Assembly: GCA_019415985.1 (NCBI GenBank)
Contig: DXYE01000055.1
Location: 1 to 17,580, forward strand
DNA: 17,580 nt
Reading direction: 5' to 3'
Origin: Clostridiales bacterium
GTDB lineage: Bacteria; Bacillota; Clostridia; Oscillospirales; CAG-272
The translations under genes were made by a program, and so were the position numbers. Below, one piece after another: positions 847 to 13,166 of this stretch (position 1 is its first letter; each line of letters opens with the position of its first letter). A model generated the notes under the pieces. That model saw nothing but the letters and a program-made list of their open reading frames with translations, did not search any database and was not told where the DNA came from.

Positions 847-3447
847 ATGAATCTGCAAAAATTCACACAAAAAAGCATAGAGGCCGTACAGGCCGCGCAG
901 AGCATGACCATAGCAAGCGGAAATCAGCAGATGGGTCAGGAGCATCTGTTGCTTGCGCTTACAGAACAGCAGAATGGCCTGATTGCCGAGCTGTTTCGCA
1001 AAGCCGGCGCATCGCCGGAATCCATTTCCGCATCTCTGCGTCAGGCTATCGAACGTTTGCCTAAGGTAAGCGGAGGCATTGAACCTGATAAAATTTATAT
1101 ATCAAGAGACGTTGAACAAGCACTGACAGAAGCGGAACGTCAGTCGGAAAAAATGAAGGATGATTTTGTTTCCGTCGAGCATATTATGCTGGGAATTCTT
1201 CAGAAACCGCAGGAGAATATCAAACGGATCCTGACGGACGCCGGGGTGACAAAGGACAGCTTTCAGAAAGTACTGAAAGTAGTAAGAGGAAACCAGCATG
1301 TGACAACGGATAACCCGGAAGGTACCTATGATGTACTGAATAAATACGGGCAGGATCTTGTGGAGCTTGCCCGCCAGCAGAAACTTGATCCTGTCATCGG
1401 CAGGGATGATGAAATTCGTAATGTGATCAGAATTCTTTCCAGAAAAACAAAAAACAATCCCTGCTTGATAGGTGAACCGGGCGTGGGTAAAACGGCCATA
1501 GCAGAAGGATTGGCACTTCGAATCGTCCGTGGAGACGTACCGGATAACCTGAAAAACAGACGGCTGTTTTCGCTGGATATGGGGGCACTGATTGCCGGTG
1601 CAAAATTCCGTGGTGAGTTTGAGGAACGTCTGAAAGCGGTTCTCAATGAAATAAAGGCAAGCGATGGCAATATCATTCTCTTCATCGACGAGCTGCATAC
1701 GATTGTCGGAGCCGGAAAAAGCGACGGCGCAATGGATGCGGGAAATCTGCTCAAGCCCATGCTGGCCAGAGGAGAACTGCATTGCATCGGTGCAACAACC
1801 CTCAATGAATACCGGCAGTATATCGAGAAGGATGCGGCACTGGAACGGCGTTTCCAGCCGGTCATGGTAGATGAGCCGACGGTTGAGGATACCATTTCCA
1901 TTCTCCGAGGATTGAAGGAACGATATGAGGTATATCATGGCGTAAAAATCCAGGACCAAGCGCTGATAGCTGCGGCTGTACTGTCCAACCGGTATATTTC
2001 CGACCGTTTTTTGCCGGATAAGGCGATCGATTTGGTTGATGAAGCATGCGCGTTGATCAAAACCGAGATCGACAGCATGCCAACGGAAATGGATGAAATT
2101 TCGCATAAAATTATGCAGTTGGAAATTGAAGAGGCTGCCTTAAAGAAGGAAAAGGATAAGCTCTCAGAAGAGCATCTGCATCAGATTCAAGAGGAATTGG
2201 CAAATGACCGCGACCGCTTTACTTCTATGAAGGCGAAATGGGAGAACGAAAAGCAGTCGATTGAAAAGGTGCAAAAGCTCCGCGAGGAAATCGAGCAGAC
2301 GAACGCGCAGATTGAACGTGCACAGAATGAATATGATCTGGGACGCGCTGCGGAATTGAAATATGGAAAACTGCCTCAGCTCCAGAAAGAACTGGCGGAG
2401 CAGGAGGCGAAAGCCGAAACCAATAAAAACACACTGCTGCGCGACCGTGTCACAGAGGAAGAGATTGCACGGATTGTAGCGAGATGGACAGGAATACCGG
2501 TCTCTAAACTTATGGAAGGGGAACGGGAAAAGCTGCTGCATCTGGATGATACGCTTCACGCACGTGTAATCGGACAGGATGAAGCGGTAGAAAAGGTGTG
2601 TGACGCCATACTCCGTTCCCGCGCAGGCATTCAGGATCCGAGACGCCCGATCGGCTCCTTCCTGTTTCTGGGACCGACCGGCGTTGGAAAAACGGAGCTG
2701 GCAAAAGCATTGGCGCAGGCGTTGTTCGACGATGAGCACAATATGGTGCGTATCGATATGAGCGAATATATGGAGAAATATTCCGTATCTCGCCTAATCG
2801 GAGCGCCCCCCGGTTACGTTGGATATGACGAAGGCGGTCAGCTAACGGAAGCTGTACGCAGAAAGCCTTACGCGGTTGTTTTGTTTGACGAGGTAGAAAA
2901 GGCGCATCCCGATGTGTTCAATGTACTGCTGCAGGTACTTGACGACGGAAGAATTACCGACAGCCAGGGAAGAACCGTTGACTTTAAAAATACCATTATC
3001 ATTATGACGTCAAACCTCGGTTCAGATATCATACTCGATGGCATAGAGAGCAACGGAGAAATCAGCACACAGGCGCGTGAAAGCGTATCCTTGCTGCTCA
3101 AACGCAGTTTCCGTCCCGAATTTCTTAACCGGTTGGATGAGATCGTATTCTACAAACCGCTGACGAAGGAGAATATTTACGGTATTGTAGATTTGCTGAT
3201 TGCTGATTTGGAAAAACGGCTGTCTGAGAAGCAGCTTCACATTACCGTGACCAATGCTGCCAAGGATTATATAATGGAACAAGGATACGATCCGGTTTAC
3301 GGCGCCCGTCCGCTAAAACGTTTTCTACAGTCACGCGTGGAGACGTTGCTGGCCAGAAAAATGATTGCTGAGGATCTGGAGCCGGGTACTCGGCTGACGG
3401 TGGATGTGGTAAACGGAAACCTTCAAGCCGAGGCATCAACTAAATAA
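847..3447 (+). CDS. clpB: ATP-dependent chaperone ClpB (Hsp100 disaggregase)
   Basis: 866 aa. N-terminal Clp repeat domain. Two AAA+ modules with Walker A motifs [15 protein letters not shown] and [16 protein letters not shown] long coiled-coil middle domain ([21 protein letters not shown]...) sits between the two NBDs, and the sensor/C-terminal D2 small domain is present. This is the typical ClpB length and architecture. Confidence 0.95.
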
Positions 3448-3537: not shown

Positions 3538-3642
3538 ACGATTCTGCTTTTGATGACCGATGTCATACTCACCGGCATCTGCATCGGATTTTTGTTCGCA
3601 AACATGGATGCACCTGCCAAAAGCACCGGTTTACTGACCTCA

Positions 3643-3671
3643 TTGCTTTTTCGTCTCCAATATGCTATAAT
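3643..3671 (+). promoter_or_regulatory. Sigma-A type promoter with extended -10 (TTGCTT - 17 nt - TGcTATAAT) driving the WYL regulator genes
   Basis: -35 TTGCTT at 3643-3648, exact 17 nt spacer, TG at 3663-3664 and TATAAT at 3666-3671. The predicted TSS is ~3678, about 50 nt upstream of the first WYL ORF start. Confidence 0.55.
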
Positions 3672-3728
3672 GTGCACGGCATAAAATTTTTCGATACGAC
3701 TTAAAAACGAAAAAAGGGGGTGAACAGT

Positions 3729-4982
3729 ATGTCCTCTTACAGCGAGTTGATTAAGAATTTTGAAAAGATCCGCAGCTATATGCGCGAGTTTTATGTATAC
3801 GGCTTTAAGAGCCGGGAGGATTACGACAAAAAGAGCGCACGTTCTTACGATGATGAGCGTCGCCGCATGGAAAGCTGGCTTGGCAATCATATGAGTTTTA
3901 TACGAACACCGGAAGGTAAGACCATGTTCATCTCCATTGACAGCCGGGTGTCCCATCACAATCCTCTATATAAAGCCCTGAAGGCAAAGAGCTTTACCGA
4001 CAGAGACATTACGCTTCATTTCATCCTATTCGATATTCTGCATAGCCCCGATGTGAGCCTTTCGCTGCCCGAAATTCTGAATCGACTCGATTCTTATTTG
4101 TCCGAATTTGAAGCGATGATGGTTTTCGATGAGTCAACCCTAAGAAAGAAACTAAAGGAGTACATCGAACAGGGCGTCATTACCGCTGAAAAGGTCGGCA
4201 GAAAAATGATGTACCGAAGAGCAGAGAACACCGAAATCGGAAATCTTGGTGATGTTCTGCATTATTATTCCGAGGTTGCCCCGTGCGGCGTGATCGGTTC
4301 TTTTCTTCTTGATAAAGAGGACAAGGACGGATCTCTTTTCAGTTTTAAGCATCATTACATAACCGGCGCCATAGATAGCAATGTGCTGGCAATGCTTTTT
4401 ACGGCCATGCAAAAGAAAAGCGTTGTCACCGTATCCAATTTCAGCCGACGAGCCGACGAGCCGAGAAGAAACCGAATCATTCCGCTTCGTATTTTCATCA
4501 GCGTGCAAAACGGCAGGCAATACCTTCTTGCGTATCAGCCCGACTTCAACGTGATCAAATCCTTCCGTATTGATTACCTATCGGATGTAAAAATTGAAGA
4601 ACGTACGCCCCGTTTTGATGAGCTGCGGGCTGAGCTTGTTAGGATGCAGCCGAAAATGTGGGGTGTTACCGCAAAGAAGAACCGATACGGCGAAGAGCGG
4701 GTGGAGCACGTAGATTTTACCGTAAAGATCGGTAAGGGAGAGGCATATATTATCCGCCGTCTTGAGCGAGAGAAGCGAAACGGTAAGGTAGAGAAGATTG
4801 ATGATCAAACCTGGCGTTTTACCGCCGATGTGTACGATACAAGCGAAATGATTCCGTGGATTCGCACATTCATTTGCAGAATCACGAAACTGAATTTCTC
4901 CAACCGAACTGTTGAAAATCAATTCAAGCGTGACCTTGCAGAGATGTACCGTATGTATGGTATCGGGGAGGCGGAAGTTTGA
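3729..4982 (+). CDS. WYL domain-containing transcriptional regulator (HTH-WYL-WCX architecture, PafB/PafC/BrxR/CapW-like) with a ~100 aa N-terminal extension
   Basis: Winged-helix segment LPEILNRLDSYLSEF...STLRKKLKEYIEQGVITAEKVGRKMMYRR. WYL-like core RIIPLRIFISVQNGRQYLLAYQPDFNVIKSFRIDYL. C-terminal WCX-like tail EMIPWIRTFICRITKLNFSNRTVENQFKRDLAEMYRMYG. Best start is ATG 3729, where GGGGGTG lies 6 nt upstream; the ORF track used GTG 3720. Confidence 0.6.
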   Translation: MSSYSELIKNFEKIRSYMREFYVYGFKSREDYDKKSARSYDDERRRMESWLGNHMSFIRTPEGKTMFISIDSRVSHHNPLYKALKAKSFTDRDITLHFILFDILHSPDVSLSLPEILNRLDSYLSEFEAMMVFDESTLRKKLKEYIEQGVITAEKVGRKMMYRRAENTEIGNLGDVLHYYSEVAPCGVIGSFLLDKEDKDGSLFSFKHHYITGAIDSNVLAMLFTAMQKKSVVTVSNFSRRADEPRRNRIIPLRIFISVQNGRQYLLAYQPDFNVIKSFRIDYLSDVKIEERTPRFDELRAELVRMQPKMWGVTAKKNRYGEERVEHVDFTVKIGKGEAYIIRRLEREKRNGKVEKIDDQTWRFTADVYDTSEMIPWIRTFICRITKLNFSNRTVENQFKRDLAEMYRMYGIGEAEV

Positions 4983-4994
4983 AAGATTTATCTT

Positions 4995-6020
4995 TTGAAG
5001 CCTGTTTTGTGCATTTCTCCGCCCAAGTGGGCAGCGATTTTGCTTGGTAATCCCCACACAATACCGAAAGAAGGATGCTTTCGCTACACGAAAGCTATGG
5101 TCATAGGAATGATATTCAATGAGATCTATTCTGCCTACTATAATACTGTTGCAAAGGTTATTTCAGAGATCCTCGACGGGAACATTTCGGAAAAGGATCT
5201 GAACCGAATCGTTTGCGACAATGCTTTCGGTGAGAGCATACTCACCATCCTTCCATCTCTGAAAAACGGGAAGTGGCCGTTGATCAAGTCCGATATGACC
5301 ACGCCTCTGAAGCACAAGCCCTCCATGCCCCTGACGCTTATTCAAAAGCAGTGGCTGAAGGCAGTATCTCTTGACCCACGTATCAGACTTTTTGGCGTGG
5401 AATTTCATGGTCTCGACGATGTGGAACCGCTTTTCACTTCTGAGGATTACGTGGTTTACGATAAATACGGAGACGGCGATCCTTATTGGGATGAAGAATA
5501 TATTGCAAGATTTCGTACGGTTTTGTCTGCTTTGAAGAACCAGAAGCCCTTAAAAATTACAACGGTCAATCGCAGGAGCAATTTGATTTCAATGAACGTT
5601 ATGCCAACAAGATTTGAATATTCCGAAAAGGATGATAAGTTCCGATTGATCTGTACCGGATGCCGGTACGGAGGCGTTGTGAATCTTGCACGGATGGTTT
5701 CATGCGAAATTTGCACAGTCGCAGATTTTGAATGCCGTCCATCTGTCCAACCTATTAAAAAAACGATAACCCTTCGTATTCTCGATGACCGCAATGCTTT
5801 GGAACGTGCAATGCTTCACTTTGCACACTTTGAAAAGCAGGCAGAGCAAATCGACAGTACCCATTATCTTGTACGCATTCGATATGATAAAGACGATGAA
5901 ACTGAAATGGTGATTCGTATTTTGAGCTTTGGTCCGATGGTAGAGGTAATGGAGCCCGAGAGTTTCAGAAAATTGATAACGGATCGCCTACAAAGGCAGA
6001 AAAGCTGTGGACTTTTTTAA
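4995..6020 (+). CDS. Second WYL domain-containing regulator (WYL-WCX). The start codon is ambiguous: TTG 4995, TTG 5040, ATG 5097 or ATG 5109.
   Basis: WYL-like segment KITTVNRRSNLISMNVMPTRFEYSEKDDKFRLICTGCRYGGVVNLARMVSCEI. Very typical WCX C-terminus EMVIRILSFGPMVEVMEPESFRKLITDRLQRQ. The reading frame is the same as the upstream WYL ORF, and a single TGA (4980-4982) separates them. Confidence 0.55.
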   Translation: MKPVLCISPPKWAAILLGNPHTIPKEGCFRYTKAMVIGMIFNEIYSAYYNTVAKVISEILDGNISEKDLNRIVCDNAFGESILTILPSLKNGKWPLIKSDMTTPLKHKPSMPLTLIQKQWLKAVSLDPRIRLFGVEFHGLDDVEPLFTSEDYVVYDKYGDGDPYWDEEYIARFRTVLSALKNQKPLKITTVNRRSNLISMNVMPTRFEYSEKDDKFRLICTGCRYGGVVNLARMVSCEICTVADFECRPSVQPIKKTITLRILDDRNALERAMLHFAHFEKQAEQIDSTHYLVRIRYDKDDETEMVIRILSFGPMVEVMEPESFRKLITDRLQRQKSCGLF

Positions 6021-6037
6021 GTTCGCAGCTTTTTTTC
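6001..6037 (+). terminator. Possible weak intrinsic terminator or first hairpin of the downstream structured region
   Basis: aaagctg (6001-6007) pairs with cagcttt (6026-6032) as a 7 bp stem. The 18 nt loop contains the stop codon. A T tract runs 6030-6036. Confidence 0.3.
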
Positions 6038-6170
6038 CGTGTTTATTGCTTTATAAACTGGTAAAATATGCTTGCAAGGACGCTTCAAGCGTGTGTTTGA
6101 GATCAACTTTCACCGCGGTACACCTGGCTATGCCGACGTGTATGCCAGAAGTTTCTCTTGCTCCGTGAAA

Positions 6171-6342
6171 TCGAGAAAGAGTGAAAGCTCTCGAATCGAT
6201 GGGGTCAACTCCCCAAAAGGACCTGACAAGTCCGTCTAGCGCGGGTTCGAGTCCCGCCGTATGCAATGAAAGCATATCGCCAGTGGTTTGGTAGCGCCGG
6301 AAACGGCAAAAAAGCGGTGTGCGAAAGCACGCGAGATCGTTT
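6171..6342 (+). ncRNA. Candidate structured ncRNA with a tRNA-like module (anticodon-arm-like hairpin, perfect T-arm, downstream GNRA hairpins, T-run)
   Basis: Hairpins: cgaga-N12-tctcg (6171-6194); gggg-tcaact-cccc (6201-6214); ggac-ctgacaa-gtcc (6219-6233, a 7 nt loop with U33 and a 37-purine, anticodon-like GAC); T-arm gcggg-TTCGAGT-cccgc (6241-6257) matching the tRNA T-loop consensus; tatgc-aatgaaa-gcata (6260-6276); gccg-GAAA-cggc; tgtgc-GAAA-gcacg; then TTTTTT at 6337-6342. No convincing ORF. A canonical cloverleaf (acceptor stem, D-arm) cannot be completed. Confidence 0.3.
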
Positions 6343-6560
6343 TTTAATCTCAAAGCAATTGCTCGGCAGAACGCGAAGGAAATATTCTTTTGTCGAAGCA
6401 ATGCACCATCTGCCTTGTCTGAGAATGGATACCGTGAATCAAACAGACAAACCAAAAGAAAGTCTTTCCGTTTGCTTGTGAGACCACTCAAGTTTTTGGC
6501 CGCAGGTCGTGCATGAGCAATTGCAAACCGTATTTTGACCTTCAGGAGGTATTACATATA

Positions 6561-7661
6561 ATGAAAAAGATTATTGTTAATGAAAATCAAAGAGGCTTTC
6601 TTTTCAAAAACGGTAAGTATGTAAAAATGCTTACTTCCGGTAAATACTACGTTTGCGGCGGGAAGGAAATCGAAGTAGTAAATTTGAACCAGCCTATCGT
6701 ATCCAATCAATGTGCGTTAGATATTATTCTTAAGGATAAAACGGTTGCAAATGCCGTTTCAGTCGTCGAGGTAGCGGACGAGCAGCTTGCACTTCATTTT
6801 GTGAACGGAAAGTTTGCTTCTGTGCTCCGTCACGGTAAGTACGCTTTCTGGTCTGTTATCGACAAGCATGAGTATAAGCTTGTGGATATTTCTACGCCCG
6901 AAGTCAAGAGTGAGGTGCCTGAGTACATCTTCTCTAAAATCCCTGCTATCTATTACACAAAGATAGAAGTTTTGGAGTATCAGAAAGCAAGGCTTTACTT
7001 CAATCAGAAGCTCGTCAGAATTCTGGATGCAGGCACCTACTATTTCTGGAAAATCGGCGTTAAGATCGACGTTGATTTTGTGGATACCAGACTGACGCAG
7101 ATGAATATCACCGGTCAGGAGATTCTGACACGGGATAAGGTTTCACTCCGTATCAATTTCGTCTGCAACTACCGCGTGACAGATTGCGTAAAGATTCTTA
7201 CCGAGATTGATGACTTTGCAGAACAGATTCATGTCGCGGCACAGTTGGCTCTCCGTGAGTATGTAGGCCAATACAAGCTGGATGAAATACTTGAAAATAA
7301 AGCGCAGATGTCCGGGTTTGTATTTGATAAGTTAAAAGCAAAAGAAAAAGATCTGTTTGTGGAAATCAAGGATGCCGGCGTGAAGGATATTATTCTTCCC
7401 GGTGAGATCCGCGAGATCATGAACACCGTCCTGGTGGCTGAAAAGCGTGCGCAGGCCAATGTTATTTCACGCCGCGAGGAGATTGCCTCTACCAGGTCCC
7501 TCCTGAATACAGCAAAGCTGATGGAGGAAAATCAGACCCTTTATAAGCTCAAGGAGCTTGAATACGTCGAGCGTATCTGTGAGAATGTCGGCAACATCAA
7601 TTTGAACGGCAATGGAGATGTTTTAACTCAGCTTACAGGTATTCTCAGGGGCAATACTTAA
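6561..7661 (+). CDS. SPFH/band-7 (stomatin/prohibitin/HflK-like) domain protein with a triplicated N-terminal beta-strand module
   Basis: The C-terminal half (...VKDIILPGEIREIMNTVLVAEKRAQANVISRREEIASTRSLLNTAKLMEEN...) is typical of the SPFH helical region. The N-terminus has three repeats of the motif x-GflF-NGK-x-vL-x-GKYyFW: NQRGFLFKNGKYVKMLTSGKYYVCGG, EQLALHFVNGKFASVLRHGKYAFWSV and QKARLYFNQKLVRILDAGTYYFWKIG. GGAGG lies 11 nt upstream of ATG 6561; an alternative start is ATG 6513. Confidence 0.7.
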   Translation: MKKIIVNENQRGFLFKNGKYVKMLTSGKYYVCGGKEIEVVNLNQPIVSNQCALDIILKDKTVANAVSVVEVADEQLALHFVNGKFASVLRHGKYAFWSVIDKHEYKLVDISTPEVKSEVPEYIFSKIPAIYYTKIEVLEYQKARLYFNQKLVRILDAGTYYFWKIGVKIDVDFVDTRLTQMNITGQEILTRDKVSLRINFVCNYRVTDCVKILTEIDDFAEQIHVAAQLALREYVGQYKLDEILENKAQMSGFVFDKLKAKEKDLFVEIKDAGVKDIILPGEIREIMNTVLVAEKRAQANVISRREEIASTRSLLNTAKLMEENQTLYKLKELEYVERICENVGNINLNGNGDVLTQLTGILRGNT

Positions 7662-7733
7662 TTTTTATGTTCAGGTCGGAAGAAGCTGTTATATTGTTTT
7701 GCCTTCTATCGACTTTTCAGAAAGGAAATCATC

Positions 7734-8942
7734 ATGATAGAGATCATAGGAAAATACAACACCGCTAAGTGCTATACAAACGAGCTCGAAGATGGCGCCT
7801 GCGAGCAAATTAAGGCGATATGCAACGAAGAAGCGTTCGCAGCCTCCAAAATTAGAATTATGCCTGACGTACACGCCGGAAAGGGATGTACCATCGGCAC
7901 CACCATGACCATTGTTGATAAGGTGGTTCCCAATATGGTGGGCGTGGATATTGGTTGCGGCATGTATACTGTCAGCCTCGGAAAAGTCAATATCGACTTT
8001 GAAAAGTTTGACAGGGCGGCGCATTTTATTCCCTGCGGACGAAGTGTATGGGAGGGAAGACAGGAGAGATTTGATCTGACAGCTCTTCGCTGCTATCGAA
8101 ACCTCAAGGATACAAGAAGATTGGAAAGAAGTCTCGGAACTTTAGGCGGAGGAAACCACTTTATTGAGATTGATGCTGATACGGACGGAAACAAATATCT
8201 TATTCTTCACTCCGGAAGCCGGAACCTCGGTACGCAGGTGGCGGCGTACTATCAGGGCGTCGCTGTCGCTCTGAACCTTGGCAAAGAGGAGTATTTTCAG
8301 AAGAGAGACGATATCATCCGTACCTACAAAGAGGAGGGGCGCAGAAGTGAGATTCAGGCAGCCCTCAAGGCGTTATCGAACGAGTGGGAGGAAAAAGTGC
8401 CAACGATGCCCCGCGAGCTTTGTTACCTCTACGGCTCCTTTATGGAGGATTACCTCTATGATATCAACATCTGTCAGCAGTTTGCACGTCGCAATCGCGA
8501 AAAAATGGCGGAGATCTTACTCGAGAAGACAGAGCTTCCCTCGGGGCGCGCCTTCCATACGGTACATAACTATATTGACATGGAGGAGATGATCCTGCGC
8601 AAGGGGGCGGTTTCCGCAAAGGCAGGAGAGCAGCTTTTGATCCCCATCAACATGCGTGACGGAAGCCTGATCTGTATCGGCAGGGGAAACAGGGATTGGA
8701 ACAATTCCGCGCCACATGGTGCAGGTCGTCTGATGTCTCGCTCTATTGCCTTTGAAAGACTTACTCTGGAGGAGTACACGGCGCAAATGGCGGGTATCTA
8801 CTCGACCTGCGTGAATTCCTCTACCCTTGATGAGTCTCCTATGGCATACAAAAACATGGCCGAGATCGTGGAGAATATCGAGCCGACGGCCGAGATTATT
8901 GCCCACATAAAGCCTATTTACAATTTCAAAGCGGCAGAGTAA
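7734..8942 (+). CDS. rtcB: RNA-splicing ligase RtcB (3'-phosphate/5'-OH RNA ligase)
   Basis: Collinear with E. coli RtcB motifs: IMPDVHAGKGCTIGTT, VGVDIGCGM, LGTLGGGNHFIEID, LHSGSRNLG, HNYI, RKGAVSAKAG, SAPHGAGRLMSR and C-terminal SPMAYKNMAEIV. 402 aa. Confidence 0.9.
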   Translation: MIEIIGKYNTAKCYTNELEDGACEQIKAICNEEAFAASKIRIMPDVHAGKGCTIGTTMTIVDKVVPNMVGVDIGCGMYTVSLGKVNIDFEKFDRAAHFIPCGRSVWEGRQERFDLTALRCYRNLKDTRRLERSLGTLGGGNHFIEIDADTDGNKYLILHSGSRNLGTQVAAYYQGVAVALNLGKEEYFQKRDDIIRTYKEEGRRSEIQAALKALSNEWEEKVPTMPRELCYLYGSFMEDYLYDINICQQFARRNREKMAEILLEKTELPSGRAFHTVHNYIDMEEMILRKGAVSAKAGEQLLIPINMRDGSLICIGRGNRDWNNSAPHGAGRLMSRSIAFERLTLEEYTAQMAGIYSTCVNSSTLDESPMAYKNMAEIVENIEPTAEIIAHIKPIYNFKAAE

Positions 8943-8951
8943 AAAAACAGA

Positions 8952-8984
8952 AGCATTGCGCGGTACGGCAGTGCTTTTGTTTGT
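8952..8984 (+). terminator. Rho-independent terminator downstream of rtcB
   Basis: agcattgc-gcggtacg-gcagtgct (8 bp stem including one G-U) is followed by tttgtttgt. It begins 10 nt after the rtcB stop. Confidence 0.7.
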
Positions 8985-9215
8985 ATATGGACGATCATTT
9001 GACTGTCTTAAGTGTGTTGCGGTGAGGCAGGACTTGGGATATACCGAATGGGAAAAGGCCACGCTTAACGACGGAAGAGGCGTCGATATATTCCGGCATC
9101 GAATAAAACCCCCTGTCCGTGAGCATCCAAATGGAGAGAATTACGTATCCGGCTCAAAAATGCTTGTTGTGCGAATTCGCAGGGTTATACGGAGTTGTGT
9201 GCTTTACCGGATCCC

Positions 9216-9233
9216 CTGTCTGATGCCAGACAG
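9216..9233. repeat. Perfect inverted repeat / hairpin CTGTCTG-ATGC-CAGACAG
   Basis: 7 bp perfect stem with a 4 nt loop, inside an ORF-poor 670 nt region. No T-run follows. Confidence 0.5.
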
Positions 9234-9428
9234 TCATACAAGGCGCACAATACCCGGTATACATGTAAAATCAAGATCCTGAGCGGAAAAAATGAAGGAA
9301 TATGGAAAGCGTCCGTGATACCGGACCGGTCCCGCAATATAAGCTTTGCTGTTCGGCAGCGTTTTCCGCTGTTACAGGACGCATGGAATCCCTTTACGCA
9401 CTGTAAGAGCTATTTATTCAAAGAAATC

Positions 9429-9448
9429 GCGGACGCTCAGGCGTCCGC
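9429..9448. repeat. Perfect GC-rich inverted repeat / hairpin GCGGACGC-TCAG-GCGTCCGC
   Basis: 8 bp perfect stem with a 4 nt loop. No T-run. An adjacent 10 nt palindrome GGACCGGTCC lies at 9323-9332. Confidence 0.5.
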
Positions 9449-9662
9449 ACGGGATTTGCCGCCGACCGCTGTGGTATTGAAATACTCTTTCATCTATTCG
9501 CTTCATAACTGCTGCATTGCTGAAAGGTACAAAATGCCTGATAAATCCATATCCCGACCCATGAAATATGTACATTGTTATAAGGAAAGACTCTTTACAT
9601 TTTTTGGAATTTATGCTATACTTTTGTCAGTTAGTTGTATATAATGGAACGGAGGATGGCAA

Positions 9663-11905: not shown

Positions 11906-11959
11906 CCGAGCTTGCTAGTCGAGGCTGTCTGATTCTTTAGACGATGTTATGGGAAATAC

Positions 11960-11993
11960 GGGCGAAAGTCATAAAGACCTTCGCCCTTTTTAT
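11960..11993 (+). terminator. Rho-independent terminator downstream of dapL
   Basis: gggcgaa-N13-ttcgccc (7 bp stem) is followed by tttttat. Confidence 0.75.
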
Positions 11994-12444
11994 TGTATAT
12001 ACGAAATAAAACGCAGAAATTTAAAAGACCGCTGCTCCGAAAAAGACAAACAAGTAAAACAAAACGATCATTTTAAAGTTATAACATTTATCGGGCGAGC
12101 ATATATAATAGAATAGTGGAAGTAAATATCTAAAGTGGAGAGAAAGACTCTAATAAAAAATATAAATAAATGAATTGAGCCATTTGAGGTCCTCAGCAGA
12201 TAAATTTTTGTATAAATAGACTGCATGTCAAGAGAAGATGGGATAGCGGGTTAAAAAAAGTTTAATGAGAATTTAGAGCAGATGACGTTAGTTGCTTCAG
12301 AGTTTTTATCCGTGATAGATGATAAATGGATACGATGCAGACTGATGAAAGAACTGAAACTACCGATGCTGGATCTATAAGTAGTTCATTGTCATACGAG
12401 GATATTGTCTTTCCAGGATTGAATTCATTAAAAGGAAAGGTGAG

Positions 12445-12780
12445 TTGGGCGCTAGTTCCGACGGTAAAGATATGAGTTGCTGTGTATGTATTAAAAAGCT
12501 CCGGGACAAGGAAGTCATAAATATCTGTGACGGAAAGAGACTGGGGTTTGTCGATGACGTCGAAATTGATGTAAGCTGCGGCCGCGTGGTATCTCTTGTT
12601 GTTTTTATGGACGATGGCAAATGCTTTTCTATTGGTAAAGGAGAGGAAGTTATGGTCCCATGGGACCGTATTGAAAGAATTGGCGACGATGTAATCCTTG
12701 TCAATATCAATGTGGAAGAGTGCAGAATCTGCGGCCGGGGAGAAGGCGAACGCGAGAAAAAAAAGAAAGGCTTTTTTTAA
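12445..12780 (+). CDS. YlmC/YmxH-family PRC-barrel protein (sporulation-associated family) with a Cys/Lys-rich C-terminal tail
   Basis: KEVINICDGKRLGFVDDVEIDVSCGRVVSLVV matches the conserved YlmC/YmxH core (E-[IV]-IN...G.[RK]LG.[IV].D). The start is either TTG 12445 (AGGAAAGG upstream) or ATG 12472. Confidence 0.55.
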   Translation: MGASSDGKDMSCCVCIKKLRDKEVINICDGKRLGFVDDVEIDVSCGRVVSLVVFMDDGKCFSIGKGEEVMVPWDRIERIGDDVILVNINVEECRICGRGEGEREKKKKGFF

Positions 12781-13008
12781 GCTGCATTATGAGTATCTAA
12801 ATTGAAAGCTTAATTGTATCGTTTACATATCGTTATCTGGGGACAATCGGTGCCGTTGTCTGACTCTGATGCGCCGGTTTTCCCGGATTTTATGCGTTGT
12901 AAAGTTAAGATTTGGCAGTCAATATTAATGTGAAAATAAAAGAAGCAGCAAGGACACTAAAGGTAACGGGATCTAAATGTAAAATAAATGTGAATAAACA
13001 TTGTTGTG

Positions 13009-13037
13009 TTGCGCATTTCCAATATTTATGCTATAAT
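13009..13037 (+). promoter_or_regulatory. Promoter with extended -10 (TTGCGC - 17 - TGcTATAAT) upstream of rpsB
   Basis: TG at 13029-13030 and TATAAT at 13032-13037. The -35-like TTGCGC lies at 13009-13014. A ~125 nt leader follows before rpsB. Confidence 0.45.
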
Positions 13038-13039
13038 AT

Positions 13040-13166
13040 ACCAGAATGCAATGTATTTGTTGCATGAAATATTACACACATAACGGAATGTAGCGGATGG
13101 TGCCGAGCGTTCGGTCTGCGCACAGAGAGCCGTTATGGTGGAACAACCAGAAGGAGGACATGCAAT
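13040..13166 (+). other. rpsB 5' leader (possible S2 autoregulatory structure)
   Basis: ~125 nt untranslated leader between the promoter and GGAGG-ATG. It contains the dyad gcatgaaa.../tgcaatg and ccgagcgttcgg elements. In other bacteria the rpsB leader is known to be autoregulated by protein S2; this was not modelled here. Confidence 0.25.

Follow-up and report, generated by a model that had tools for sequence, protein, structure and literature searches.

The 17,580-nucleotide (nt) stretch of Clostridiales DNA analysed here (contig DXYE01000055.1; hereafter the window) carries, between clpB and dapF, a cassette of two adjacent genes for WYL-domain regulators (WYL1 and WYL2), a structured RNA with a tRNA-like module, a gene for a Band-7 (SPFH) protein, and rtcB. 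The cassette is known here from computed sequence analysis, and we read it, with moderate confidence, as an RNA-repair system made of Band-7, a tRNA-like RNA and RtcB under the control of the WYL pair. An earlier inspection of the same DNA (the original prediction) had named these elements and proposed a WYL-regulated RNA-repair cassette. All of them were found at or near the positions it gave, with small corrections of coordinates (Table 1), and that reading proved largely right, although as a whole it is supported in part.

Table 1. Coordinates of the cassette elements and of the upstream neighbour clpB in the window
Feature	Coordinates	Strand	Basis
clpB	847-3447	+	Pfam scan of window open reading frames
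Promoter of the WYL1-WYL2 unit	3643-3671	+	Sequence reading
WYL1	3729-4982	+	Pfam/PADLOC, family start
WYL2	5097-6020	+	Pfam WCX/PADLOC, homologue extent
Intrinsic terminator of the WYL unit	5998-6041	+	Fold energy, hairpin alignment
Invariant 20-nt box TTCGCAGCTTTTTTTCCGTG	6022-6041	+	Conservation across loci
Extended -10 element TGGTAAAAT	6059-6067	+	Kept in nearly all loci
RNA domain A	6074-6346	+	43-locus alignment, covariation
RNA domain B	6355-6524	+	42-locus alignment, covariation
Band-7 gene	6561-7661	+	Pfam Band_7
rtcB	7734-8942	+	Pfam RtcB
Terminator closing the RNA-band7-rtcB unit	8945-8984	+	Fold energy, U-run

Two predicted transcription units and an invariant box

Two transcription units are predicted within the cassette, one comprising WYL1 and WYL2 and the other the RNA, the Band-7 gene and rtcB, because a terminator follows WYL2 and a separate, conserved promoter stands behind that terminator. 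The original prediction had instead placed everything in a single operon driven from a promoter ahead of WYL1, a proposal against which this terminator and second promoter argue. The promoter ahead of WYL1 can indeed be read in the sequence (TTGCTT-N17-(TG)nTATAAT, with the -35 element TTGCTT at 3643-3648, a 17-nt spacer and the TG-extended -10 element TATAAT at 3663-3671), but the DNA upstream of WYL1 holds no conserved site among 52 loci, and the promoter is therefore better regarded as a local feature than as a conserved part of the system. The terminator behind WYL2 is a 17-bp hairpin followed by U7 (-25.5 kcal/mol, z = -6.0), and its 3′ half coincides with the box TTCGCAGCTTTTTTTCCGTG. 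The strong terminator proposed to close the cassette is also present, as a 15-bp hairpin at 8945-8982 (-21.5 kcal/mol, z = -5.5) followed by the U-run UUUUGUUUGU. A further match in a promoter scan, at 6535-6562, coincides in part with the Band-7 gene's ribosome-binding site and ATG and most likely arose by chance.

Across the window and the other loci, 77 sequences carry the box with at most three mismatches and about 70 carry it letter for letter, even in loci whose WYL proteins share only ~50% identity. It is not palindromic, always lies on the + strand, and is set a constant ~20 nt ahead of the extended -10 element TGGTAAAAT, across a spacer that keeps its length while its sequence varies. 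The promoter is thus of the sigma70 extended -10 type, with no evident -35 element, and from its position the RNA is predicted to start at ~6073-6075, coinciding with the first base of helix P1. The box is kept in loci L024 and L059 despite the absence of WYL2 upstream, and a second copy precedes a relocated rtcB in L084 and a second non-coding RNA region in L031, L044 and L046. Because the box, the WYL pair and RtcB travel together, we propose the box as a candidate operator to which the WYL pair would bind.

One could argue that the box is merely the terminator of the WYL operon, that the WYL proteins regulate something else, and that their adjacency to RtcB reflects shared mobility. We consider this very improbable. 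The box does form the 3′ strand and U-tract of a strong hairpin, yet it is exact over its whole length, including the TTCGCAGC part and the CCGTG that follows the U-tract and that a terminator does not need. Furthermore, its distance to the -10 element is fixed, it persists where WYL2 or the 5′ half of the hairpin is missing (in L024 and L059 and in the second copies of L044, L046 and L084), and the region upstream of WYL1 offers no conserved site that might serve the WYL proteins in its place.

The WYL pair

The open reading frame (ORF) of WYL1 spans 3720-4982, with the family start most likely at the ATG at 3729, which gives a protein of 417 amino acids (aa), the length of the homologue family. 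It is probably of the helix-turn-helix (HTH)-WYL-WCX type, with an extra N-terminal region of ~90 aa, and matches Pfam WYL at 2.6e-7 (above cutoff), WCX weakly and PADLOC WYL at 3.4e-13. The ORF of WYL2 is open from a TTG at 4995 to 6020, but homology begins only near 5097-5109, and in all loci tblastn matches to homologues span ~302-304 aa. The start is therefore placed at ~5097-5109 rather than at 4995, giving a protein of ~303-307 aa that matches Pfam WCX at 2.2e-5 (above cutoff) and PADLOC WYL at 1.7e-8. These profiles, together with the fold matches of WYL1 described below, uphold the assignment of both ORFs to the WYL regulators that the original prediction had made. The two proteins have no detectable sequence similarity to each other, and HTH profiles in the Pfam and NCBIfam scans matched neither of them. 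The spacer between the WYL1 stop and the homologous start of WYL2 (4983-5096, ~115 nt) contains a small hairpin at 5065-5095; in other loci, by contrast, the genes are directly adjacent or share a few bases.

An AlphaFold2 (AF2) model of WYL1 has a low overall confidence (predicted local distance difference test, pLDDT, 55.6) and is built of a WYL barrel, a WCX domain and a winged-HTH-like unit; in this low-confidence model the last of these, at residues 91-164, has three helices and two strands (H-H-H-strand-strand) at pLDDT 70-88. All 32 of the Foldseek matches to the model at E <= 0.001 are WYL-domain proteins, namely DriD, PafBC, CapW, BrxR and 6oaw, a CRISPR-Cas-related protein, and the model aligns with full-length DriD, PafBC, CapW and BrxR over ~300-360 columns (213-364). 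PafBC, a WYL heterodimer encoded by two tandem genes, activates the DNA-damage response of mycobacteria; both it and DriD are sensors of single-stranded DNA that regulate genes for DNA damage. BrxR and CapW act as repressors in the control of defence systems. Sequence searches of the PDB with WYL1, WYL2 and DUF2828 as queries returned nothing useful.

A large two-domain structured RNA

The non-coding stretch between WYL2 and the Band-7 gene is a large two-domain structured RNA that is absent from Rfam. The original prediction had taken this region for a structured RNA resembling a tRNA mimic of the YrlA kind, and covariation and a covariance model now confirm a genuine structured RNA whose tRNA-like module has the YrlA arrangement. 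Some 450 nt (~6074-6524) are conserved throughout, within a 540-nt stretch that has no conserved ORF; in 6074-6524 the longest open frames switch strand and frame between loci. A minus-strand ORF of 146 aa at 6051-6491 was rejected, as it has no Pfam match and such frames are not conserved between loci. Rfam searches of the window, of a simpler relative and of the E. coli relative described below, at gathering and at permissive thresholds, returned only a tmRNA T-arm fragment and chance hairpin matches.

The structure of domain A was obtained from an alignment of 43 loci with RNAalifold and then curated. Its 5′ part consists of helix P1 (6074-6078 with 6157-6161) and of P3 and P4 at 6117-6146. 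Three optional inserts follow, namely an internal-loop hairpin (6170-6200), a T-loop-like hairpin (GGGGUCAACUCCCC, 6201-6214; of the form GGGGUUCAACUCCCC across loci) and an anticodon-arm mimic (6219-6233, loop CUGACAA at 6223-6229), and the window carries all three upstream of the T arm. Behind the tRNA-like module, the tail is formed by a GAAA hairpin (6296-6307) and another hairpin (6317-6332). In the alignment, 93.4% of cells are paired over the 41 curated pairs, as compared to 27-49% in slid controls, and 26 of these pairs show compensatory changes. In relatives, a CUGAUGAG hairpin was considered as a hammerhead and rejected, since neither GAAA nor a stem III follows it and Rfam is silent; it looks more like a putative k-turn or internal-loop hairpin.

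Domain B is rod-like and is closed by a 10-bp helix of GCAATTGCTC (6355-6364) with GAGCAATTGC (6515-6524), which varies between loci, for example to GTTATCATTC/GAATGATAAC. Compensatory changes support 37 of its 42 predicted pairs in the 42-locus alignment, pairing holds in 92.5% of cells (slid controls, 36-44%), and the covariation score of 0.576 (controls 0.10-0.13) was reached by none of 500 shuffles. Within this scaffold lie invariant unpaired stretches such as GGAUACCG at 6427-6434. A covariance model, R1, which spans the T arm to the GAAA hairpin of domain A, picks up the RNA in front of Band-7 in another 18 loci (E 1e-17 to 3e-4), including loci without WYL genes.

The 3′ end of domain B lies 20 nt ahead of the Band-7 gene's Shine-Dalgarno sequence, and the RNA might accordingly be mainly a cis-acting leader, riboswitch-like or an attenuator, that sets the expression of band7 and rtcB in response to damaged or uncharged tRNA or to a small molecule, rather than a cofactor acting in trans. 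Invariant unpaired nucleotides in a covarying scaffold are what one finds in ligand-binding leaders, many loci have a hairpin and then a U-run between domains A and B that could be an attenuator, and the strand right behind the T arm has two candidate partners, one downstream and the other the invariant G/U-rich segment 6138-6144, a possible switch. However, domain B is followed by neither a terminator nor an anti-Shine-Dalgarno element, the hairpin between the domains is weak in the window (z = -1.4) and lacks its U-run in several loci, and the alternative pairing shows no compensatory changes. Moreover, the RNA and Band-7 are inherited together and are exchanged jointly for DUF2828 and another RNA, which fits a protein-RNA partnership better. 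We therefore regard a leader as the strongest competitor of a trans-acting RNA, and still an unlikely one. As a separate observation, the nucleotides that separate the Shine-Dalgarno sequence from the Band-7 start codon (TTACATAT; 6550-6560 and its equivalents) are kept from locus to locus, an unusual trait in a spacer.

A permuted tRNA-like module in domain A

The tRNA-like module begins with a perfect tRNA T arm (GCGGGTTCGAGTCCCGC, 6241-6257), followed by a closed, 'acceptor'-like hairpin (6259-6277) in which five of five pairs show compensatory changes, and by a D-arm-like hairpin (6279-6292) of 4 bp with GG in the loop. In RNAs that carry the anticodon-arm mimic, its 7-nt loop features U33 and purine 37, and the module then reads, on its sequence and predicted fold, as a tRNA permuted between the D and anticodon arms. 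This is not a canonical tRNA gene, as ARAGORN calls no tRNA in the window and the Rfam tRNA model does not match. Of 48 loci scanned, ARAGORN calls the RNA region in just three, using another acceptor pairing, and this classical acceptor stem was rejected as the main fold because it is pairable via G.U changes only, with no compensatory pairs and no excess over shuffles. When the arms were re-joined as synthetic tRNAs of 76 nt, ARAGORN called 3 of 42, no better than for the native sequences, so that this test lends support neither for nor against a permuted tRNA. Separately, the invariant GUGUAUG at 6138-6144 can pair with the variable strand 6258-6264 in 93% of alignment cells, with changes by G.U wobble only. 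The result may be a second, cloverleaf-like conformer in competition with P3 and the acceptor-like hairpin.

Among the anticodon-like triplets G-U-N predominates, being present in 27 of 35 loci, or 10 of 21 distinct hairpins, against a chance of 4 in 64; these counts are uncorrected for shared ancestry. G34-U35 is the signature of the Asp, Asn, Tyr and His anticodons, and colicin E5 cuts exactly these tRNAs. The RNA could thus be a sentinel or decoy, in that an anticodon nuclease would cut the mimic, the cut RNA with its cyclic phosphate would activate the WYL pair, and RtcB would reseal the cut RNA along with cellular tRNAs; the regulator RtcR is activated by tRNA fragments with a cyclic phosphate (PMC7790460). 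The 7-nt loop, U33 and purine 37 of the mimic suit such a role, yet the anticodon-arm module is optional and missing in about half of the RNAs, the triplet of the window is GAC rather than GUN, the bias may owe something to common descent, and an anticodon nuclease is not known for these organisms. Taken together, these points leave the sentinel an improbable explanation, clearly behind a cis-acting leader.

Band-7 and RtcB

The Band-7 ORF is open from 6513 and its true start is the ATG at 6561 behind AGGAGG, giving a protein of 366 aa that is annotated as 'slipin family' and has ~7,900 homologues. The profile checks proposed earlier for this protein and for RtcB both came out as expected, with Band_7 at 5.5e-29 and RtcB at 4.6e-57, and the two genes are separated by a gap of 72 nt, as had been stated. 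Band-7 has no transmembrane or hydrophobic segment, which indicates a soluble protein, and the motif of the first SPFH strand (VE.Q..L.F.NGK....L..G.Y.FW) is tripled in it, at residues ~5-30, 70-97 and 135-163. Its AF2 model (pLDDT 47) was too poor to use. In one lineage (L090, 7001-8917), a cassette with the RlaP nucleotidyltransferase encodes a Band-7 protein of 638 aa that has ~270 extra residues and 62% identity over the shared part, and in three loci (L048, 7146-7559; L072, 4338-4754; L059, 4575-4964) a conserved small ORF of ~137 aa lies between Band-7 and RtcB.

RtcB of the window (402 aa) belongs to a divergent, short subfamily whose matches to the NCBIfam RtcB models fall below the equivalog cutoffs. 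Aligned to P. horikoshii RtcB (PDB 4dwr/1uc2), it keeps PDxH, DIxCG, GNHF, HxGSR and HGAGR. The protein thus appears to retain the metal- and GTP-binding residues and the motif of the guanylylated histidine, HGAGR, and is a predicted ligase. A search of the window for a remnant of RlaP or a DUF2828 gene found none.

Conservation of the cassette and exchange of its modules

To place the window among its relatives we scanned one genome per species, which returned 80 Band-7 loci from Oscillospiraceae, Acutalibacteraceae, Lachnospiraceae, Christensenellaceae and relatives, whose Band-7 proteins share 69-89% identity. The full order WYL1-WYL2-RNA-Band-7-RtcB is present in 35 of the 45 loci that could be evaluated throughout; RtcB follows Band-7 in 56 of 63 evaluable loci, and WYL1 and WYL2 precede it in 49 of 55. 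In some loci the RlaP nucleotidyltransferase (PF10127) comes after RtcB. Gut and rumen Clostridia carry the cassette very commonly, Ruthenibacterium lactatiformans (L073) being one example, and near-identical Band-7 and WYL proteins number in the thousands. Its surroundings, by contrast, differ from genome to genome, and neither clpB nor dapF is a neighbour in any of the compared loci; a Lachnospiraceae cassette, for example, lies between a grpB-like gene and an HA-domain gene.

A scan of metagenome contigs for the exact box found at least 120 stretches. Among the matches listed, 55 of the 60 with enough downstream sequence have RtcB, Band-7 and/or a DUF2828-DUF7788 protein within 3.5 kb, and 52 of the 65 with enough upstream sequence are directly preceded by WYL1 and WYL2. 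The commonest form among these matches is the box, a different RNA, RtcB and DUF2828, with the Band-7 form second, and one contig from a viral collection has WYL1-WYL2-box-RNA-RtcB without Band-7. In view of these metagenome and viral contexts, the box, the WYL pair and RtcB are the constant parts of the system, and the partner made of a protein plus an RNA is exchangeable. The tight co-localization of the WYL pair with rtcB, which the original prediction had put forward as its neighbourhood check, therefore holds in the Clostridia loci and in the metagenome contigs alike.

The second box-driven non-coding region is unrelated to the RNA of the window and was seen in L044 (5117-6160), L046 (8334-9420), L031 (3334-3950) and L091 (9826-10270). 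It has repeated AAAGNCNC..ACAGCA motifs, followed by RtcB and/or a DUF2828-DUF7788 protein, and in L044 and L046 ARAGORN calls a tRNA within it whose anticodon loop is odd (AUA, or a loop of 8 nt). In the metagenome contig L127, an integrase-like ORF and a small sigma70-region-4 protein replace RtcB 1.3 kb 3′ of the box, which suggests that a mobile element inserted at the RNA gene.

The changing surroundings, the occurrence in a viral-contig collection, and the presence of the defence regulators BrxR and CapW among the best fold matches of WYL1 would all suit an anti-phage or abortive-infection module in which the WYL pair is a repressor, Band-7 and the RNA the effector, and RtcB the antidote or reset. 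Against this, Band-7 matches no PADLOC defence-system model and RtcB matches a reverse-transcriptase model only weakly, no Band-7 homologue was found in 50,697 phage records, the cassette has no toxin-like domain, and the accessory genes RlaP and DUF2828 are tied to RNA repair in the literature. A defence module is accordingly, in our estimate, even less probable than the sentinel described above.

Relatives outside Clostridia

Full-length Band-7 homologues with 33-35% identity are present in Burkholderia, Photobacterium, Citrobacter and E. coli. The E. coli slipin, for example, is 33% identical over its full length, tripled motif included, and is encoded on an island between yjbD and lysC in 1,425 of 5,426 complete genomes (L087, 5680-7925; L089). 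Upstream of the slipin gene the island has an RNA with a T arm and then a closed hairpin, which the R1 model matches weakly (19.7 bits, E ~0.009), and a sigma54-like promoter, TGGCAC-N5-TCGCA, can be read in the sequence. An RlaP-like nucleotidyltransferase, 40% identical to clostridial RlaP, follows the slipin, and a gene of the zeta-toxin family is convergent to it. Neither a WYL gene nor an adjacent ligase is found on the island. Because the island has the RNA and the slipin without WYL genes, it supports a view in which the RNA and Band-7 would be the conserved core and regulators have been swapped between lineages.

Relation to known systems

To our knowledge, the Band-7 branch of RtcB systems has never been experimentally tested. 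RtcB beside Band-7 and a predicted tRNA called 'band-7-associated' (b7a-tRNA) was reported by Burroughs and Aravind in 2016, according to a preprint on the YrlA structure (bioRxiv 10.1101/312249), which also gives b7a-tRNA as lacking experimental validation as of 2018. In addition, an SPFH gene, PaFlo8, lies inside the rtcR-rtcA-rtcB locus of P. aeruginosa PA14 (PMC13086221). The original prediction had suggested that the SPFH protein might be a new component; with these two precedents, it is not. In its sequence features the window is thus most probably one member of the Band-7/tRNA-like RNA/RtcB class, a type of system already known as the 2016 prediction. It shares with this class the adjacency of Band-7 and RtcB and a tRNA-like RNA beside Band-7, a possible counterpart of b7a-tRNA, and its RNA measures ~450 nt, with two covarying domains and a permuted tRNA part, and is not a plain cloverleaf. 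The 2016 prediction is said to have included RlaP as an occasional partner, and the RNA with Band-7 was reportedly proposed as a ligation scaffold or cofactor. What was derived here is the invariant box and the exchange of Band-7 for the DUF2828 module under the same box. The general notion of CARF and WYL transcription factors as possible sensors of cyclic-phosphate RNAs that would also govern RNA repair has been published before, in papers from the Aravind group (PMC9503650).

The RtcR-controlled Rsr/YrlA/YrlB/RtcBA system of Salmonella resembles the window in combining RtcB, an RNA-binding protein of ring or scaffold type and a tRNA-mimicking RNA. That operon is induced through a sensor of damaged RNA, a likeness that in the window is presumed. 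YrlA is encoded beside rsr (Ro60/TROVE) and is bound via a 5′ GNCGAAN0-1G motif in its terminal stem. Its T and D stem-loops are separated by a closed acceptor-like stem-loop (PMC4201824), and the same order of T arm, closed acceptor-like stem-loop and D arm is found in the window RNA. The partner in the window is Band-7, however, and control appears to lie with the WYL pair and a sigma70-type promoter rather than with the CARF-containing RtcR and sigma54. The window RNA is also three to four times longer than YrlA, and no TROVE/Rsr domain was matched among the window ORFs scanned against Pfam (clpB to the aminotransferase gene, and other long ORFs). The window RNA is therefore not to be classed as YrlA. 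Similarly, no RtcA or CARF-AAA+ RtcR domains were found among the Pfam-scanned window proteins, which sets the locus apart from canonical RtcR-RtcBA.

With the PafBC and DriD systems, whose proteins are among the best fold matches of WYL1, the window shares adjacent WYL-plus-WCX genes (as in PafBC) and an asymmetric candidate site just upstream of a -10 element with no evident -35. It differs from them in that its regulon is made up of RtcB and predicted RNA-binding partners rather than DNA-damage genes, and in the mutual dissimilarity of WYL1 and WYL2. The PaFlo8 rtc locus and the E. coli slipin island share with the window the tie between an SPFH protein and RNA-repair genes, whereas these proteobacterial versions have no WYL genes and a sigma54-like promoter, as read from the sequence, and the E. 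coli island has its convergent zeta-toxin-family gene. The suggestion in the original prediction that WYL regulators take the place of RtcR fits this picture in two respects, as the proteobacterial relative of the RNA and Band-7 lies behind a sigma54-like promoter without WYL genes, and as the WYL pair and the invariant box accompany RtcB even where Band-7 is absent.

A model for RNA repair under WYL control

Under the reading we favour, a WYL-controlled repair system, WYL1 and WYL2 would act together on the asymmetric box, much as PafB and PafC act on their own site. Their WYL domains would bind a product of RNA damage, for which RNA fragments or ends with a 2′,3′-cyclic phosphate are candidates, and transcription from the box promoter would then change or be switched on. 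The RNA would form the 5′ end portion of the band7-rtcB transcript, perhaps existing in a shorter version on its own as well, would fold into an L-shaped tRNA-like module with further domains, and would assemble with an oligomeric, soluble Band-7. The resulting particle might bring RtcB to broken tRNA or rRNA, or hold the broken ends, and RtcB would reseal ends with a 2′,3′-cyclic phosphate and a 5′-OH.

Several points weigh against this model. Band-7 is without an adjacent RtcB in 7 of the 63 loci and the E. coli relative has no neighbouring ligase, and therefore RtcB need not be the sole route by which the RNA and Band-7 act. That Band-7 binds RNA or forms rings is pure inference, its structure model having failed, and on the regulatory side no HTH profile in the Pfam and NCBIfam scans matched WYL2 and the model of WYL1 is of low confidence. 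The box doubles as the 3′ half and U-tract of the WYL2 terminator, so part of its conservation could stem from that role, and the position of domain B directly before the ribosome-binding site also fits a cis-regulatory leader. Finally, promoter use, the start site, the ends of the RNA and its processing are all inferred from sequence.

If the WYL pair does sense damaged RNA, WYL factors would be extended from the control of DNA damage and phage defence to RNA repair. The system also bears on the question of what bacterial RtcB repairs and why it is paired with tRNA-like RNAs and ring-forming proteins. It offers an exact 20-nt candidate operator, a predicted transcription start and a covariation-backed fold of ~450 nt as experimental handles, and natural comparison sets in the Band-7 and DUF2828 modules under the same box and in WYL as against sigma54 control. 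In its boldest form, a conjecture to which we attach little probability, the WYL pair and the box would constitute a dedicated RNA-damage regulon of gut Clostridia, in which the permuted-tRNA RNA, of a new class of large structured RNAs, is both a G34-U35 sentinel and a cofactor, an anticodon nuclease cuts it, its cyclic-phosphate fragment is read by the WYL proteins, the box promoter fires, and the Band-7 ribonucleoprotein and RtcB reseal tRNAs. Were this so, it would be the first RNA to serve as damage sensor and repair cofactor at once, and WYL transcription factors would have their first RNA ligand.

Flanking regions of the window

Downstream of the cassette, dapF and an aminotransferase gene lie on the + strand, ~700 nt after rtcB. 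The intervening ~680 nt between the rtcB terminator and dapF (8985-9662) have no Pfam-recognizable ORF, and no similarity was found between them and the regions 3′ of RtcB in other loci. Farther on, the 1.26 kb between the aminotransferase gene and rpsB (11906-13166) have short ORFs only, none with a Pfam match. Within the region ahead of dapF, a GC-rich hairpin at 9428-9449 resembles a minus-strand terminator.

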